From assembly GCA_022769665.1 (NCBI GenBank), contig JALEIR010000066.1, positions 3,723 to 67,722 of the forward strand: a DNA stretch of 64,000 nucleotides, read 5' to 3'. How positions within the stretch are numbered: the first letter of the stretch is position 1; each line of letters starts with the position of its first letter. A program made the translations under genes and the position numbers. A model generated the notes under the pieces. The model made no database searches. It had not been told where the DNA came from and saw only the letters and a program-made list of their open reading frames with translations. Positions 1,340 through 48,806 of this stretch are shown one piece after another. Source of the stretch: Lachnospiraceae bacterium. Lineage in GTDB: Bacteria; Bacillota; Clostridia; Lachnospirales; Lachnospiraceae.

Positions 1340-1900
1340 ATGGAATTAAAGGAAATGATTTTGGAAGGCACACTGGAAGTATTTAACAGAAAAGGAATCA
1401 AATTTACTATGGACGATATTGCGAAAGCGCTTAATATCAGTAAGAAGACTATATACACGGTTTTTGATGATAAAGAGAGCTTGTTTATGGCTATGGTGGA
1501 TTACCTGTTTGATTCCATTAAAGAGAGCGAGAAACAAGTCCTTTTGGATGAAAGCCTGAATACACAGGAAAAAATCAGAAAAATTTTGGGGGTTATGCCG
1601 GAGAGCTATAAAAATGTGGATTTCAGGCAGCTCTATATGCTGAGGGATAAATATCCTGCCATTTATGAAAGAGTGGAAGAAAGGCTTGAAACCGGCTGGG
1701 AAAGTACGATTGCGCTGTTGGAACAGGGAATACGGGAAGGCGTTATACGAAAGGTAAATATATCTATTGTTAAAATGATGTTGGAAGCATCCTTGGAACA
1801 GTTTTTTCAAAGGGATATTCTAATCAGAAATGATATGAGGTATACGGATGCATTGGATGAGGTGGTTCATGTAATTATGGACGGAATCACAGCAAGATAA
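1340..1900 (+). CDS. TetR/AcrR family transcriptional regulator
   Basis: N-terminal HTH FNRKGIKFTMDDIAKALNISKKTIY. ATG at 1340 chosen over the upstream start at 1310. Confidence 0.9.
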   Translation: MELKEMILEGTLEVFNRKGIKFTMDDIAKALNISKKTIYTVFDDKESLFMAMVDYLFDSIKESEKQVLLDESLNTQEKIRKILGVMPESYKNVDFRQLYMLRDKYPAIYERVEERLETGWESTIALLEQGIREGVIRKVNISIVKMMLEASLEQFFQRDILIRNDMRYTDALDEVVHVIMDGITAR

Positions 1901-1924
1901 TGATGGAAAGGGAAAGAGCCGAAA

Positions 1925-4432
1925 ATGAACAGAATTTATTTAAATGAAGGTTGGAAGTTTACAAGTGAATTTTCAGAGGAATTACTGAAGGCCGATTGTA
2001 AAGAAAATGAAATGACAGGTGTCAGGATACCTCACACGGTGAAAGAGACCCCTTTTTCCTATTTTGATGAGTCGGAATATCAGATGGTGAGCGGTTATCG
2101 TCGTATCCTTTCAATACCGGAAGAATGGCGGGGTAAAAAGCTATTGCTCACCTTTGAAGGAGTTGCCCATGACAGCGTTGTATATTGCAACGGTAAAACG
2201 GTGGCAGAACACCATTGCGGTTATACGGCTTTTACGGCAGACATAACATCTGCAGTTCATTACGGACAGGAAAATGTTCTGGTTGTAAAAGTGGACAGTA
2301 GAGAGTCTTTGAATGTGCCACCCTTCGGTTTCGTGATTGATTACATGACATACGGAGGAATTTATCGGGATGTGTATCTGGACGTGAAGGAGCCGCGTTA
2401 CATGAAGGATGCTTTTCATTATTGTCGATTCGATGAAAACAGTATTTTTCATGGAACTGAAAGTGTGTCGGATTTCACACTGGTTTCGGAATATGAGATA
2501 AGTGTAGACTGTCAGGATAAGGAGTCTTTTCTGAAACTGTATTTGAGAGATTCAAATAAAGAGGAGGTATTGCTTGGGGAGAAGACGGTGCAAAAGGTTT
2601 CGGAATTTTCGGTAAGTGATACGGAAGAAGAAAAAAATGCAAGGACAGTAAAGGTTGTGTTGCAGACCACGCCGGATGAGGTTATGCTTTGGGACACGGA
2701 ACATCCCGTGCTTTACACGTTGATTACGCGTCTTTATGCGGGAGAAGCGTTGTTGGATGAAAGGCAGGTCCCCTTTGGATTCCGAAAGGCAGAATTTCGG
2801 CAGGATGGATTTTATCTGAATGAATGTAAGGTAAAGTTACGTGGCTTAAACAGACATCAGAGCTATCCTTATGTGGGATATGCTATGCCGAAGTCTATGC
2901 AGAAACTGGATGCTGATATTTTAAAGAAAGAACTTGGGGTAAATGCGGTTCGTACTTCACATTATCCCCAGAGCCACTACTTTTTGCAGGAATGTGATGA
3001 AATTGGGCTTCTTGTATTCACGGAAATTCCGGGCTGGCAGCATATCGGAGATGAAGACTGGAAAGAACAGGCAATCCGAAATACGGAGGATATGGTGAAG
3101 CAGTACCGAAATCATCCCTCCATTGTACTTTGGGGAGTCAGAATCAATGAGTCTCAGGATGATGATGCATTTTACGAAAGAACCAATGACGCAGCACATC
3201 GCCTTGATCCTTCCAGACAGACAGGTGGCGTCAGAGCAAACAAAAAAAGCAGTCTGTTGGAGGATGTATACACCTATAATGATTTCGTGCACGACGGCAG
3301 TAACAAAGGCTGTGAGCCGAAGAAAAAGGTGACTTCAGACAGAAAGAAGGGATATCTGGTTAGCGAATATAACGGACATATGTATCCCACAAAGTCCTTT
3401 GATTCTGAGGAACACAGAAGAGAGCATGCGATACGTCATGCGACGGTTTTAAATGCCATCGGCGGAGAAGAGGATATTGCCGGCAGTTTTGGATGGTGTA
3501 TGTTTGATTATAACACTCACAAGGATTTTGGAAGCGGTGACCGAATCTGTTATCACGGTGTTACGGATATGTTCAGAAATCCTAAGGAAGCGGCATATGT
3601 TTATGCCTGCCAACAGGAAAAAGAGATTGTTCTTGAAACCGGTTCCTCCATGGATATTGGCGAACATCCGGGATGTAACAGAGGCACTGTCTGGATGTAT
3701 ACAAATGCGGAAAGCGTGAGGGTATACAAGAATGACAGATTTTTAAAAGAATACTTTTGCAGTGAGTCTCCGTTCAAATATTTAAAACATGGTCCGATTG
3801 CAATGGATGATTTTCTGGGAAAGGTGCTTTCGGAAGAAGAGCATTTTAAACCGGGACAAGAAAAAGCATTGAAAGAAATTCTGAATTGGGTAGCTTTGTA
3901 TGGATTGAATCATTTTACTCCAAGGATATACCTGATTGTTCTGAAACTGGTTCTGGTCTATCATATGAAGCCTTCGCAGGTGGTAGACCTTTACACAAAA
4001 TATATCGGTGATTGGGGCGGAACTTCAACAGTATACCGTTTTGAAGCGATACGAAGCGGAAACGTTGTAAAGAAAATCATCAAAGAGCCGATGAGGGAGA
4101 TAAGTCTGTTGTGCATCCCCGACCATTCCGTGCTGGTGGAAGAGAATTCTTATGATGTGGCATTGGTTCGTATTAAGGCTGTGGATCAGAACGGAAATAT
4201 ACTTACCTTCTTCAACGAGCCGATACAGCTTGAGACGGATGGCGATATTGAACTGGTAGGTCCCGATTGTATTTCTCTAAAAGGAGGCATGGGAGGTACC
4301 TATGTAAAGAGCCGGGGAAAGAACGGGAAGGGCTTCTTAAGAATAAAGAGTAATCGGACAGAAACGTATTGCATTGATTTTAAGGTGTCTTTGTGGGATA
4401 AGGAGGAACAAAAAAATGAAATTGACGGTTAA
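1925..4432 (+). CDS. GH2 beta-galactosidase
   Basis: GH2 motifs: LRGLNRHQ, RTSHYP, acid/base INES, nucleophile region SEYNGH. Confidence 0.9.
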   Translation: MNRIYLNEGWKFTSEFSEELLKADCKENEMTGVRIPHTVKETPFSYFDESEYQMVSGYRRILSIPEEWRGKKLLLTFEGVAHDSVVYCNGKTVAEHHCGYTAFTADITSAVHYGQENVLVVKVDSRESLNVPPFGFVIDYMTYGGIYRDVYLDVKEPRYMKDAFHYCRFDENSIFHGTESVSDFTLVSEYEISVDCQDKESFLKLYLRDSNKEEVLLGEKTVQKVSEFSVSDTEEEKNARTVKVVLQTTPDEVMLWDTEHPVLYTLITRLYAGEALLDERQVPFGFRKAEFRQDGFYLNECKVKLRGLNRHQSYPYVGYAMPKSMQKLDADILKKELGVNAVRTSHYPQSHYFLQECDEIGLLVFTEIPGWQHIGDEDWKEQAIRNTEDMVKQYRNHPSIVLWGVRINESQDDDAFYERTNDAAHRLDPSRQTGGVRANKKSSLLEDVYTYNDFVHDGSNKGCEPKKKVTSDRKKGYLVSEYNGHMYPTKSFDSEEHRREHAIRHATVLNAIGGEEDIAGSFGWCMFDYNTHKDFGSGDRICYHGVTDMFRNPKEAAYVYACQQEKEIVLETGSSMDIGEHPGCNRGTVWMYTNAESVRVYKNDRFLKEYFCSESPFKYLKHGPIAMDDFLGKVLSEEEHFKPGQEKALKEILNWVALYGLNHFTPRIYLIVLKLVLVYHMKPSQVVDLYTKYIGDWGGTSTVYRFEAIRSGNVVKKIIKEPMREISLLCIPDHSVLVEENSYDVALVRIKAVDQNGNILTFFNEPIQLETDGDIELVGPDCISLKGGMGGTYVKSRGKNGKGFLRIKSNRTETYCIDFKVSLWDKEEQKNEIDG

Positions 4433-15937: not shown

Positions 15938-15998
15938 GGATGGAGATAGTATACAGAAAAGCATTCGGGAAATGCATGTTAAAAAGGAAATATAAATC

Positions 15999-17792
15999 AT
16001 GACTAAAGCTCTCAAAACTACTTTTCAACATATTGAGGCAGCACCGGGACAACGAATTTTGGTAATCAGTGATATTCATGGACATTTCAATCATCTTGTT
16101 CAGCTTCTTCGAAAGATGGAGTACAACGGGGATGATATACTTGTAATTGTCGGTGATTTGGTAGATAAGGGGCCGGAGAGTCTTCGGGTGGTTCAGTATG
16201 TCATGGATTTGTGCAGACAGCATCCTGTCTATGTTTCCGCCGGAAATGTGGATATGGGTAGACTTTGGATGATTGAAGATGATTCACAGGAAGAAGCGGA
16301 AAGCTTTATCAGTTTTTTGAAATGGAATCAGGAATACTGGGGGAGTAGCTTCTGTCAGGAAATGCTTGCAGATATAGGTATCGGCCTTCATCAACTGACG
16401 GCTGAAAATGTTTTGGAATATAAACGACAGCTGAGAAGTCATTTTCAGGTAGAACTTGAATTCCTGAGGAGTCGTCCTACTATCTTGACAGCAGGTAAAT
16501 ATTTGTTTGTACATGGTGGTGTGCCTACGGATGATATAGGGAAACTGGAAGGAACAGATGCAAAAGCATATCTGAAAAATGATAATTTCCTGAATCAGGG
16601 ATATCAATTTCAAAATTACACTGTGTTAACAGGGCATTGGCCTACCTGCCTTTACCGGAATGAATATGAGGATGTGAGTCCTTTGTTTGACAAAGAGAAA
16701 GGGATTATCTGTATTGATGGCGGTTGTGGATTGAAGTCTTCCGGTCAGCTGAACGGAATCATTCTTCCGGATTGCAGGGCAAATATGGAGGAAATTTATT
16801 GGACAAGCTATGATAAATATCCCGTAGTAAAAGCGCTGGATAAGCAGGAAGATAAACCTGCATCTTTACATATTCAGTATTTTGACAGTCAGGTTGAAAT
16901 TCTAAATTGTCAGAAAGAAGATACAGAACCCCAGGGTACAGAAACACAGAGTACAGAACCCCAGGATAGTAAGACTCCGGATAGAGAAAAAAAGGATACG
17001 GAAATCCGGGAAAAAATTTGTACAATCAGGCATTTGTCAACGGGGAAAATTCTGGAGGCACCCAGGAAATGGATTTCCAATTGGGGCAATCAGGAATTTC
17101 ACTGTGATGACTATTGTGATGCGGTTTTGCAGGTTGAACCGGGAGAAATGCTGTCGGTTTTATTTGAGGCAGGGGCGAAACGTTATGTGAAAAGTCGCGG
17201 AAGAATTGGCTGGTATTATGGAGAAGCAGAACCAGTCAGCACAAAACTGCAGCTTGTGAAAGGGGCACCCCAAGGCGGGAATTGGCGCAGGGAGCGGGAA
17301 CTTGCAGTATACAGATTGTTAGATGAACTAGGACTTGTATATGAAAGAATTGACCATGATGAAGCCAACACCATGGAGGCATGTCAGGCAGTAGACGAGG
17401 TGCTGGATGCGGTTATCTGTAAAAATCTGTTCCTTTGTAATCAGCAGAGGACAAAATTTTATCTGTTGATGATGCCGGAGGGGAAAAAATTTAAAACGAA
17501 AGAATTGTCCAAACAGATTAACAGTGCCAGACTTTCATTTGCGGAAGCCATGTATATGGAGGAGTTCCTTCATATCACTCCCGGTTCTGTCAGTGTCATG
17601 GGTCTGATGAATGATAAGAATAACCGGGTACAGCTTCTGATTGATAAGGATGTACTAAAGGGAGAACGGTTTGGCTGTCATCCCTGTATGAATACCTCGA
17701 GCATAAGAATGAGCCTGAAGGATTTGCGGTATAAGTTCCTGCCTGCTGTAAGCCATGAACCTGTATTTGTAGAACTGAATGGCGGGGATTAG
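15999..17792 (+). CDS. Calcineurin-like metallophosphoesterase fused to a PrdX/YbaK-type aminoacyl-tRNA editing domain
   Basis: N-terminal DIHG, GDLVDKG, GNxD, HGG, GHWP and IDGGCG. C-terminal CKNLFL, LSFA, TPGSVS and HPCMNTSS of the ProXp-ala/PrdX family. No stop between the two. Confidence 0.8.
   Translation: MTKALKTTFQHIEAAPGQRILVISDIHGHFNHLVQLLRKMEYNGDDILVIVGDLVDKGPESLRVVQYVMDLCRQHPVYVSAGNVDMGRLWMIEDDSQEEAESFISFLKWNQEYWGSSFCQEMLADIGIGLHQLTAENVLEYKRQLRSHFQVELEFLRSRPTILTAGKYLFVHGGVPTDDIGKLEGTDAKAYLKNDNFLNQGYQFQNYTVLTGHWPTCLYRNEYEDVSPLFDKEKGIICIDGGCGLKSSGQLNGIILPDCRANMEEIYWTSYDKYPVVKALDKQEDKPASLHIQYFDSQVEILNCQKEDTEPQGTETQSTEPQDSKTPDREKKDTEIREKICTIRHLSTGKILEAPRKWISNWGNQEFHCDDYCDAVLQVEPGEMLSVLFEAGAKRYVKSRGRIGWYYGEAEPVSTKLQLVKGAPQGGNWRRERELAVYRLLDELGLVYERIDHDEANTMEACQAVDEVLDAVICKNLFLCNQQRTKFYLLMMPEGKKFKTKELSKQINSARLSFAEAMYMEEFLHITPGSVSVMGLMNDKNNRVQLLIDKDVLKGERFGCHPCMNTSSIRMSLKDLRYKFLPAVSHEPVFVELNGGD
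16920..17009 (+). repeat. Degenerate 15-bp in-frame tandem repeat (6 units)
   Basis: GATACAGAACCCCAG/GGTACAGAAACACAG/AGTACAGAACCCCAG/GATAGTAAGACTCCG/GATAGAGAAAAAAAG/GATACGGAAATCCGG, encoding DTEPQ GTETQ STEPQ DSKTP DREKK DTEIR. Confidence 0.7.
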
Positions 17793-17974
17793 TGAGAAAA
17801 ATCTGCTATATGTGCCGTCTGCGAAATGGGGAATAAAGGAAAATCAGCCGGGGAACTGTCAAATTGTAAAAAAGAATTGCAATTGTGTCAAAATAGGAAT
17901 ATGATAAAATCCGTGTCGTCCTATAGAAATGTGAGCCGATACGGATTTTGAATTTACTTATGAGGAGAATCAAA

Positions 17975-19630
17975 ATGGACAAGTTAAAACCAAAGCTTTT
18001 TTCGGTGATGAAGACCTACACGAAAGAGCAGTTTATCAAGGATGTGATTGCGGGAATTATCGTTGCAATCATTGCACTGCCTCTTTCCATTGCGCTGGCA
18101 ATTGCGTCCGGTGTCGGACCTGAAGCCGGTATTTACACTGCAATTATTGCAGGATTCTTTGTGGCATTTCTGGGCGGAAGCCGAGTACAGATTGCAGGAC
18201 CCACAGCAGCTTTTGCCACAATTGTTGCCGGTATTGTGGCAAAGGACGGAGTGGAAGGCCTGATGGTTGCAACCATTATGGCAGGTTTGTTTCTGATACT
18301 GATGGGCTTCTTGAGATTCGGAAATCTACTGAAGTTTATTCCCTATACCATCACTACAGGATTTACCGCAGGTATTGCGGTTACTCTGTTTATCGGTCAA
18401 ATTAAGGATTTTGGGGGTATTATTTATCAAAACGGCGAGAACCCCATTGAAACGCTGGAGAAGGTTGAAGCTCTTATTACAAATATAACAACAATTAACT
18501 GGCAGGCTGTCGCTATAGGAGCCCTTGCGCTGGCAATTCTGATTATCTGGCCCAAGTTTTTTAAGAAGATTCCCGGCTCACTGATTGCGGTAGTGGTTAC
18601 CGCTGCAATTGTAGAATTGTGTAAGCTGGATGTGAACACAATAGGCAAAGCCTTTACCAACATTCAGGCGGGTTTTCCGAAGCTGACATTGAGCGCCTCT
18701 GTACTTTCCTTCGATATGATTCGTTCTCAGCTTTCCAATGCGGTTACCATAGCATTGCTTGCGGGCATTGAATCTCTGCTTTCGGCGGTTGTTGCGGACA
18801 GTATGATAGGTTCCAAACATCGTCCTAATATGGAACTGATCGCACAGGGTGTTGCAAATATCGGTTCTGCGTGCTTTGGAGGTATCCCTGCAACGGGAGC
18901 CATTGCCAGAACTGCCGCAAATATTAAAAACGGCGGACGTACACCAATTTCCGGAATTGTACATTCCGTGACACTGCTTTTGGTTGTGGTATTTTTAATG
19001 CCTCTTGCAAAGCTGATTCCCATGCCTTGCATTGCGGCTATTCTGTTTCAGGTGGCTTACAATATGAGCGGCTGGCGTAATTTTGTGAAGCTTTGCAAAT
19101 CCTCTCCCAAAAGCGATATTCTGGTACTTGCAACAACCTTCCTTCTGACGGTTATCTTTGATCTTGTAGTGGCCATTGAAGTAGGAATTGTACTGGCTGC
19201 CATTCTGTTTATGAAGAGAATGAGTGATGTTACGGAGGTATCGGGCTGGAAGTACATTGATGATGAAAACGATCCGGAAAGCATAGAGCTGATGGCTGTT
19301 CCCGCTCATACTTGTGTATATGAAATTTCAGGCCCCATGTTCTTTGCTGCGGCAGAGAAGATTTTGAATATTTCCATCAAGGAAGATACAAAGGTACTTG
19401 TCATCCGTATGCGAAGTGTAAATGCCATAGATGCTACGGCGATGAGGAATCTGGAACAGCTCGTTGAAGACTGTGAAAAGAAAAATGTAAAGGTGGTTCT
19501 TTCCCATGTGAATGAGCAGCCTATGAAGGTAATGGAAAAGGCAGGACTGGTAGAACGGGTGGGAAAAGATAATTTCTGCAGCCATATTGAGGAAGCGTTA
19601 AAACGTGCTGAAGATATTCAGAGAAAATAA
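17975..19630 (+). CDS. SulP family inorganic anion transporter with STAS domain
   Basis: Motifs GPTAAF, ESLLSAVVAD, TGAIARTAAN; C-terminal GPMFFAAA and IDATA. RBS GAGGAG before ATG 17975. Confidence 0.93.
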   Translation: MDKLKPKLFSVMKTYTKEQFIKDVIAGIIVAIIALPLSIALAIASGVGPEAGIYTAIIAGFFVAFLGGSRVQIAGPTAAFATIVAGIVAKDGVEGLMVATIMAGLFLILMGFLRFGNLLKFIPYTITTGFTAGIAVTLFIGQIKDFGGIIYQNGENPIETLEKVEALITNITTINWQAVAIGALALAILIIWPKFFKKIPGSLIAVVVTAAIVELCKLDVNTIGKAFTNIQAGFPKLTLSASVLSFDMIRSQLSNAVTIALLAGIESLLSAVVADSMIGSKHRPNMELIAQGVANIGSACFGGIPATGAIARTAANIKNGGRTPISGIVHSVTLLLVVVFLMPLAKLIPMPCIAAILFQVAYNMSGWRNFVKLCKSSPKSDILVLATTFLLTVIFDLVVAIEVGIVLAAILFMKRMSDVTEVSGWKYIDDENDPESIELMAVPAHTCVYEISGPMFFAAAEKILNISIKEDTKVLVIRMRSVNAIDATAMRNLEQLVEDCEKKNVKVVLSHVNEQPMKVMEKAGLVERVGKDNFCSHIEEALKRAEDIQRK

Positions 19631-48205: not shown

Positions 48206-48806
48206 TGCAAAAGAGATCAGAAAGCTCAGGAAAAAAATTGAAAAGGTCCAGGACGCGAAGAGGTTTGAGCATACTTTGGGTGTGGAATATACTGCCGCTG
48301 CTCTTGCCATGTGCTACGGAGCCTCGGTTGAGGATGCACGTCTGGCCGGGCTTTTACACGACTGTGCGAAATGTTTGACTGATGAAAAAAGACTTTCAAT
48401 TTGTAAAAAAAATGATATCCCTGTGACAGAAATTGAAATGAGAAATCCTTTTTTGCTACATGCAAAAGTGGGGGCATTTCTTGCGAAGGAAAAGTACGGT
48501 GTGGGAAAACAGGATATTCTAAATGCTATTCTATATCACACAACCGGTCATGAGAACATGAGCCTCTTGGAAAAAATTATTTTTGTGGCTGATTACATTG
48601 AACCCGGAAGAAAACAGGCTCCAAATCTTCTTGAAATAAGAAAGCTTGCTTTTCAAAATCTGGACAATGCCATGCTGCAAATTTTGGAAGATACGTTGAA
48701 ATATCTTCAAAGCGGTGGTGGAGAGACGGATCCCATGACAGAAATCACCTGGCGTTATTATAAAGAAAAAAGGGAAGAAGAACGGAGGGTATATGGAAAA
48801 CAATAA
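48198..48806 (+). CDS. yqeK: HD-domain Ap4A hydrolase YqeK
   Basis: RFEHT, LLHDCAK, LHA, HTTG, ADYIEPGR. Confidence 0.93.
   Translation: MDSAKEIRKLRKKIEKVQDAKRFEHTLGVEYTAAALAMCYGASVEDARLAGLLHDCAKCLTDEKRLSICKKNDIPVTEIEMRNPFLLHAKVGAFLAKEKYGVGKQDILNAILYHTTGHENMSLLEKIIFVADYIEPGRKQAPNLLEIRKLAFQNLDNAMLQILEDTLKYLQSGGGETDPMTEITWRYYKEKREEERRVYGKQ

Follow-up and report, generated by a model that had tools for sequence, protein, structure and literature searches.

Free-standing ProXp-ala trans-editing proteins usually consist of a single domain. In the Caulobacter enzyme, K45 is a nearly universal lysine that contacts A76 and is needed for accommodation of the CCA end. The R80A substitution lowers deacylation ~117-fold, and R80 probably reads G72 of the C1:G72 pair (PMC10164551). 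Larger forms have been described in two settings. Plant ProXp-ala (Arabidopsis At1g44835) bears an appended C-terminal domain that gives dimerization and tighter tRNA binding (PMC9425024), and in trypanosomatids ProXp-ala/YbaK-like domains are fused to prolyl-tRNA synthetase (ProRS; PMC11286415). Both the plant domain and the protozoan fusions have been informative about tRNA binding and complex formation. Here we describe a gene of a Lachnospiraceae bacterium (GenBank assembly GCA_022769665.1) that appears to join an editing domain of this kind to a whole second enzyme, a metallophosphoesterase (MPE). It occupies positions 15999-17792 (+) of the window, a 64,000-nucleotide (nt) stretch of contig JALEIR010000066.1 to which all unqualified positions refer. 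The account that we find probable, with real reservations, is that of a genuine two-enzyme fusion, arisen once and restricted to one lineage, in which a ProXp-ala/PrdX protein was joined to an MPE with an SH3-like module and in which the two halves act as proposed below.

The gene is one uninterrupted frame of 597 amino acids (stop codon included in the coordinates; P0001) with no internal stop. Two Pfam models match it far over their gathering scores. Metallophos (PF00149) covers residues 19-216 (E 4.8e-18; score 66.7 bits, cut-off 21.5), and tRNA_edit (PF04073) covers residues 453-577 (E 1.1e-21; score 77.7 bits, cut-off 25.5). The single frame and the two-domain architecture had both been proposed in a first-pass annotation of this DNA, and both hold. 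Pfam, Foldseek and a structural model delimit a predicted PPP-type binuclear MPE catalytic domain at residues 1-~262 (15999-16784, +). It is followed by an all-beta module, a putative SH3-like barrel, at residues ~263-412 (16785-17234, +). A predicted complete ProXp-ala/PrdX-type trans-editing domain at residues 415-597 (17241-17789, +) ends the protein, as judged by Pfam, phmmer and Foldseek. The full-length AlphaFold2 model, built on a 25-sequence alignment, has a mean predicted local distance difference test score (pLDDT) of 82 and a predicted template-modeling score (pTM) of 0.80.

The genome is a 93-contig draft, and in a metagenome-assembled genome (MAG) such a gene could be an artefact of chimeric assembly, of a frameshift or of a stop codon lost in this genome alone. 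Among 5.8 billion proteins, a word-indexed search found 699 matches to the fusion. All 120 that were listed are 518-640 amino acids long, carry both PF00149 and PF04073, and are 52-99% identical over nearly the full length. The fused homologues form more than 100 clusters at 90% identity, drawn from independent assemblies (ENA, Logan, NCBI, JGI) and free of internal stops, and the fusion is uninterrupted in five other genomes of the same GTDB genus (G014, G002, G009, G011, G005). Named records include MAGs labeled Blautia sp., Acetatifactor sp. and Lachnospiraceae bacterium. These observations rule out a private stop loss or a chimeric assembly, and an artefact retains practically no probability. 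The family is a 382-member cluster in the ESM Atlas. The architecture is thus common within one lineage, one of the objections that the first-pass annotation had foreseen to its own proposal. The other part of that objection, that it might already be characterized, did not stand: none of the literature searched deals with a protein that unites Metallophos and tRNA_edit, and databases hold it only under automatic names ('metallophosphoesterase', 'YbaK/EbsC family protein', the latter being the ESM Atlas name).

The parents of the two halves were sought with HMMER, in an exhaustive scan of 1.84 billion representatives at 50% identity; the whole fused family collapses there to one representative (P0073). 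A large family of proteins of ~360-400 amino acids matches residues 1-~410 at 31-55% identity, and PrdX proteins of ~180-190 amino acids match residues 417-593 at 48-68% identity. Parents of the first type (P0123, P0147, P0155) are auto-named 'metallophosphoesterase' or 'putative Ser/Thr protein phosphatase'. In alignments with 11 stand-alone PrdX proteins and with parent C-termini, Met1 of PrdX falls on T415, right after the GWYxG tail of the parent MPE. The junction therefore lies at residues ~412-416 (17232-17246, +), and the gene consists of two whole genes joined end to end, with hardly any linker between them. A complete PrdX gene of ~185 codons would have been joined to the 3' end of an accessory gene for a ~370-residue MPE with an SH3-like module.

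The junction does not lie in the low-complexity stretch further upstream. The model shows this T/E/P/Q/K-rich stretch, at residues ~305-339 (16911-17015, +), as disordered, with pLDDT under 50 from residue 308 to residue 336. Most fused relatives lack it, as do the parents, and it varies among close relatives. By alignment it is an insertion within the beta module rather than an inter-gene junction. Low-complexity insertions recur in the loop concerned, between VE(L/I)L and RHxSxG, which is a hotspot for them: P0025 has an E/K/G-rich repeat of ~50 amino acids there, the stand-alone parent P0126 has a different one, and the site is also used in P0003. In P0093 and P0102, an insertion sits at the PrdX junction instead.

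The beta module itself had been described earlier as a possibly SH3-like segment, a description that the structural comparison bears out. Its motif, GDxLSV...VKKxGxxGWYxG, is conserved in the stand-alone parents of ~370 amino acids, and in an alignment with 28 of them the segment is the native C-terminus of the parent MPE family. A separate model of residues 262-419 has a pLDDT of 87. When this model was compared with structure representatives by VIA-align, the top 50 matches were all SH3 domains (Z 8.0-9.7, root-mean-square deviation ~1.5-1.8 Å). The superpositions cover 54-57 of ~58 residues, which are near-complete SH3 domains. Foldseek gave no significant match for the same model (E 0.06 or worse), and the Pfam scan of the 597-residue protein gave no match to an SH3 model. 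In the ESM Atlas, 56% of the members of one parent-family cluster carry Pfam SH3_2. The SH3 assignment is based on the VIA-align result and on this SH3_2 annotation.

The fusion appears to have arisen once and to be restricted to one gut Lachnospiraceae lineage. In a maximum-likelihood tree of 95 editing domains, obtained by a quick search only and with many deeper forks unresolved, the 14 fused sequences form one clade (Shimodaira-Hasegawa-like approximate likelihood ratio test 96) nested among 81 stand-alone Lachnospiraceae sequences. A further 300 genera of the family were surveyed, with one genome for each. A stand-alone PrdX is present in about half of these genomes, and at least six have a stand-alone parent MPE, at a separate locus from PrdX wherever both are present. 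Among the matches listed, the fusion occurs only in the genome studied here (G000). Within the genus, a genome carries either the fused or the stand-alone PrdX. The genomes with the stand-alone form lack the cognate MPE, and the five other fused genomes have no second PrdX-clade match. This exclusivity suggests that, in one sub-lineage, the fused gene took the place of the free PrdX and carried the accessory MPE with it.

No split form, with the cognate MPE adjoining a stand-alone PrdX, was found at ~80 stand-alone PrdX loci. The only MPEs near such a gene are two unrelated ones of 23-26% identity (L094 and L050). At L094:8049-10028 (Butyrivibrio sp. X503, NZ_RAIQ01000001.1), a different MPE, 26% identical, lies ~775 nt downstream of the stand-alone PrdX on the same strand. 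This pair may be a coincidence or an independent association. Five further entries (L016, L059, L066, L068, P0036) are labeled Bacteroides, Prevotella, Bacteroidaceae or Muribaculaceae. In the tree, their PrdX or fusion genes nest among those of Lachnospiraceae, and the labels probably reflect mis-binned or mislabeled MAG contigs rather than inter-phylum transfer.

The C-terminal third was expected from the earlier reading to be a complete ProXp-ala/PrdX domain, and comparisons with known structures agree, placing it nearer to solved ProXp-ala proteins than to YbaK or ProX. By phmmer against the PDB, it matches 1vki (E 1.4e-18), Caulobacter ProXp-ala 5vxb (E 4.2e-15) and human ProX 8huz (E 8.2e-10). 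Foldseek retrieves 1vki (template-modeling (TM) score 0.91), Caulobacter 1vjf (TM 0.89), human ProX 8huz, and YbaK 1dbx (TM 0.74). On the NCBIfam YbaK_EbsC model, whose cut-off is 153 bits, the fusion scores only 16-19, and the match to ProRS is also weak. The domain is 55-72% identical to stand-alone Lachnospiraceae PrdX. Alignment to 5vxb places K475 of the CKNLFL motif (17421-17423, +) at Caulobacter K45 and R511 of the RLSF motif (17529-17531, +) at R80, and neither residue varies in the fused or the stand-alone forms. The C560-H-P-C563 block (17676-17687, +) is conserved in the PrdX clade. The fused family shows no variation from G559 to C563, and stand-alone PrdX shows none in the H, P and C.

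The genome gives this domain a plausible task. Its only ProRS is a type I, INS-less enzyme (TIGR00408, 624 bits against a cut-off of 437). A profile search of the genome found no type II ProRS and no tRNA_edit domain within any ProRS. An INS-less ProRS is the situation in which ProXp-ala is expected (PMC3973320). All three tRNAPro genes that were found have C1:G72 and A73. Given this synthetase and these tRNAs, the most likely substrate of the editing half is Ala-tRNAPro formed by the INS-less ProRS. R511 would read the C1:G72/A73 acceptor stem and K475 would position A76, and stand-alone PrdX would be an Ala-tRNAPro deacylase common in Lachnospiraceae. The genome encodes two further, free proteins of the superfamily. 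One is a true YbaK (L012; G000:C21, ORF 1462-1947, minus strand), scoring 178 bits against 153 on the Cys-tRNAPro deacylase model. The other is a tRNA_edit protein (L011; G000:C36, ORF 1435-1923, minus strand) whose best PDB matches are 2cx5/2z0k (Thermus ProX), with 1wdv (Aeropyrum) also matched. Together with the fusion, this makes three INS-superfamily editors beside an INS-less ProRS.

The phosphoesterase half retains the five motifs of a binuclear metal site. By alignment, these are motif I, S24-D-I-H-G-H29 with the metal ligands D25 and H27 (16068-16085, +); motif II, G52-D-L-V-D-K-G58 with the bridging ligand D53 (16152-16172, +); motif III, G82-N-V-D85 (16242-16253, +), where the Asn ligand remains but Val stands in place of the general-acid His of GNH(D/E); motif IV, V171-H-G-G174 with ligand H172 (16509-16520, +); and motif V, G212-H-W-P215 with ligand H213 (16632-16643, +). 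The putative ligand set D25, H27, D53, N83, H172 and H213 is invariant in 25 fused and 29 parent-family sequences. Beyond the ligands, S24, G28 and H29 of motif I, G52, K57 and G58 of motif II, and G82 and V84 of motif III are invariant in the 25 fused homologues; G52 and G58 are also kept in the parents, and motifs IV and V are invariant in both sets. With the K45 and R80 equivalents conserved as well, the catalytic machinery of both halves appears to be preserved.

The GNxD sequence in place of GNH was noted in the first pass, and it is the G82-N83-V84-D85 kept in the fused family. In the parents, motif III reads GN(V/I/N/S/C/T)(D/E), and none of 28 stand-alone parents has the His. As V84 is found in all fused sequences and the His in no parent, its loss appears to be an old trait of the whole parent family that predates the fusion, and not decay after it. 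Active MPEs without this His exist: YfcE (GNCD) and LpxH (GNRD) are diesterases or pyrophosphatases. The loss therefore argues for a different chemistry and not for inactivity. The N-terminal half would be an active hydrolase that cleaves a phosphodiester or a phosphoanhydride with a good leaving group.

Its relatives may hint at what this hydrolase would act on. By Foldseek, the N-terminal half matches lambda phosphatase (1g5b), Pnkp (4j6o), a trypanosome ApaH-like protein (2qjc) and E. coli ApaH (9ojd), with E values of 1.5e-8 to 2.8e-7 for these PPP-fold structures. In NCBIfam, there are weak, sub-threshold matches to ApaH, PrpA/B, PrpE and Pnkp, all far under the equivalog cut-offs, and orthology to any of these was rejected. 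A helical insert lies between motifs III and IV at residues ~85-160 (model helices H83-157) and resembles that of ApaH. In rare cases (P0192, P0257, P0141; 1-5 members per 90% cluster), the parent MPE is itself a fusion partner, with NUDIX or an HAD phosphatase at its N-terminus or with GNAT (Acetyltransf_3) at its C-terminus. Of these, NUDIX and HAD could point to a role in the metabolism of nucleotides or phosphate esters. We count the ApaH/PrpE/Pnkp-like N-terminus, the insert and these two partners toward a nucleotide-type substrate. Because the general-acid His is gone throughout the family, a phosphodiesterase- or pyrophosphatase-type activity on such a substrate seems more likely than one on phosphoprotein monoesters.

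The first-pass annotation went further and suggested that the fusion could couple deacylation to a phosphatase activity or to hydrolysis of dinucleoside polyphosphates. In one form of this idea, the MPE would hydrolyze compounds of the diadenosine tetraphosphate (Ap4A) type, or aminoacyl-adenylates, and the fused protein would clear two synthetase error products. The best N-terminal family matches are indeed ApaH (E 2.1e-13) and then PrpE, the PDB sequence and Foldseek matches include ApaH and a putative Ap4A hydrolase, the insert after motif III presumably resembles the ApaH cap, and one parent-family member is fused to NUDIX. However, the ApaH equivalog models are missed by a wide margin (NF001204, 50.2 against 176 bits; TIGR00668, 30.8 against 222.85 bits), and the alignment spans only the first ~75-80 residues. 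ApaH keeps the GNH His that this family never has. The genome also encodes a YqeK-type HD-domain Ap4A hydrolase at 48249-48713 (+) (G000:C34:51971-52435; TIGR00488, 149.8 bits against a cut-off of 70), so that the cell already has the usual Firmicute Ap4A hydrolase. Genomes of the same genus do without the MPE, and nothing that we found speaks specifically for the coupling. We regard the proposal as quite unlikely.

A different use of the same active site would be on the tRNA itself. ProXp-ala would dock on the acceptor stem and CCA end, and the MPE would heal a 2',3'-cyclic phosphate or 3'-phosphate left there by a ribonuclease. On nucleic-acid ends, the Pnkp phosphatase domain and lambda phosphatase act both as 2',3'-cyclic phosphodiesterases and as 3'-phosphatases. 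The nearest structures include the Clostridium thermocellum Pnkp domain (4j6o) and lambda phosphatase (1g5b), and the weak NCBIfam match to Pnkp points the same way. The loss of the general-acid His suits diesterase better than monoesterase chemistry, and RNA-binding modules often have an SH3-like fold. ProXp-ala itself makes contact with the acceptor stem and A76 (PMC10164551). Against this, the stand-alone parents have no tRNA-binding domain, no RNA-repair genes (Hen1, RtcB, ligase) are neighbors, and the likeness to Pnkp is no greater than that to protein phosphatases or ApaH. End healing is accordingly an improbable role. It is also part of a broader proposal, that the protein performs a two-chemistry quality control of the tRNA acceptor end, in which editing is followed by removal of a 2',3'-cyclic or 3'-phosphate or by action on an aminoacyl-adenylate or Np4N by-product of ProRS. 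We consider this broader proposal unlikely as well. If true, it would be an undescribed trans-acting counterpart of combined pre- and post-transfer editing, or of editing plus end healing.

The genomic context does not help to choose among substrates. The gene order is miaB, a gap of 61 nt, the fusion gene, a SulP-family permease with a STAS domain (17948-19630, +), and mutS. A Shine-Dalgarno-like AAAGGAA, read from the sequence, lies in the gap at 15983-15989 (+), 10 nt 5' of the ATG, and a terminator scan of the gap found no terminator-like site. The locus had been described as a tRNA-modification and mismatch-repair neighborhood. It is true that the gene directly follows miaB, but the SulP gene stands before mutS, and the order miaB-fusion-SulP-mutS, permease included, does not extend beyond the closest relatives (L018, L026, L002, L004). 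Fused genes at 50-60% identity (L019-L025) lie in other contexts, and we rejected the miaB/mutS setting as a functional clue. The stand-alone parent MPE has no recurring neighbors at five annotated loci, where it is found beside PfkB/DUF305, a methyltransferase/ABC transporter, a phosphotransferase system (PTS)/nucleotidyltransferase, MetH/MTHFR, and threonyl-tRNA synthetase (ThrRS)/OAD-beta. At the last of these (L109:3431-6678; G221:C74), the parent MPE (a 429-residue open reading frame) is directly downstream of the threonyl-tRNA synthetase gene, an arrangement not seen at the four others. PADLOC gave no defense-system match for the fusion or for a parent. With synteny limited to the closest relatives, no parent neighbors in common and no PADLOC match, the neighborhood gives no functional clue.

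Several of these results weigh against the two-enzyme fusion as we interpret it, or against parts of it. The lack of a recurring neighborhood for the parent MPE makes its substrate a guess. The missing His does not favor Ap4A specifically, given that ApaH retains it and that YqeK is present. The position of Caulobacter K50, occupied by C480 here, is variable: fused proteins have C or R at this site, and stand-alone PrdX has C, T or R. K50 makes a minor acceptor-stem contact and is not strictly conserved across the superfamily (PMC10164551), and C480 is therefore not disqualifying. L011 resembles Thermus ProX and is a possible second Ala-specific editor; clearance of Ala-tRNAPro may then be redundant, and the fused domain is not necessarily the sole Ala-tRNAPro deacylase. 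The single origin depends on the quick tree described above. The PrdX clade is also fused to HemD, a 2-hydroxyacid dehydrogenase and GH95 (P0180, P0182, P0225, P0191, P0216, P0269), and this promiscuity weakens the Rosetta-stone argument. The functional coupling of the two halves is speculative. The most speculative step of all is the reason for which the fusion would be kept: tethering could lend the MPE the affinity of the editing domain for the tRNA acceptor end, or fix 1:1 co-expression. As regards the HemD-PrdX proteins, they come from a Roseburia sp. CAG:380 cluster with gene-call lengths of 156-687 amino acids, and the partner in the GH95 fusion is a fucosidase. Some of the HemD, dehydrogenase and GH95 fusions may be gene-calling artefacts.

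The same promiscuity would be expected if the fusion were neutral. A stop codon and spacer would have been lost and the halves would work independently, the editing domain on Ala-tRNAPro and the MPE on an unrelated small molecule, with the joined form kept since re-splitting is unlikely. Such a history fits a parent MPE that is an accessory gene without recurring context and that was not found in same-genus genomes with stand-alone PrdX. It also fits a junction with almost no linker and no added adaptation, and a synteny that is not conserved. Yet all other fusions of PrdX or of the parent MPE are singletons or very small clusters, and this one is kept down to ~50% identity across more than 100 clusters with the catalytic residues of both halves invariant. 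No re-split form adjoins any of the ~80 stand-alone PrdX genes, and the pTM of the full-length model hints at a defined arrangement of the domains. We therefore see neutrality as possible, though clearly the less probable history, and prefer the two-enzyme fusion maintained as such.

Under the preferred reading of a maintained two-enzyme fusion, a whole second enzyme has been attached to an editing domain and kept through long divergence. Sister genomes with free versions of both halves provide a natural experiment on how tethering affects editing, or on whether it targets the MPE to tRNA. The fusion is also a handle on an uncharacterized family of MPE plus SH3 proteins of ~370 amino acids in gut Firmicutes. 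If the halves prove to be independent, the lesson would instead be one of care in drawing Rosetta-stone inferences from small editing domains that fuse promiscuously.

The MPE half shares the five-motif binuclear metal site of lambda phosphatase (1g5b), ApaH (2dfj/9ojd), PrpE and Pnkp (4j6o), significant sequence similarity to them over motifs I-III, and the helical insertion of ApaH. Unlike them, it has GNVD family-wide, reaches no equivalog cut-off and carries an extra C-terminal SH3-like module. The stand-alone MPE plus SH3 proteins of Bacillota are alike over residues 1-412, including the motifs and the beta/SH3 module. They lack the editing domain and are themselves uncharacterized, and so offer no functional anchor. 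The editing half resembles Caulobacter ProXp-ala (5vxb/1vjf) and Agrobacterium Atu3699 (1vki) in fold, Pfam family and the K45 and R80 equivalents, and it shares with such proteins the genomic logic of an INS-less ProRS and tRNAPro with C1:G72/A73. It differs from both in having Cys for K50, in an identity of only 28-29%, and in being the C-terminal third of a 597-residue protein and not a free protein of ~170 amino acids. Like plant ProXp-ala and the ProRS fusions of trypanosomatids, the protein combines the catalytic domain with a lineage-specific extra module. An appended module as such is known from plants (PMC9425024), where it is small, helical, non-catalytic and C-terminal. The appendage described here is N-terminal, comprises ~415 amino acids and has free-living homologues. 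What appears to be new is that this appendage, with its SH3-like module, is itself a predicted enzyme.

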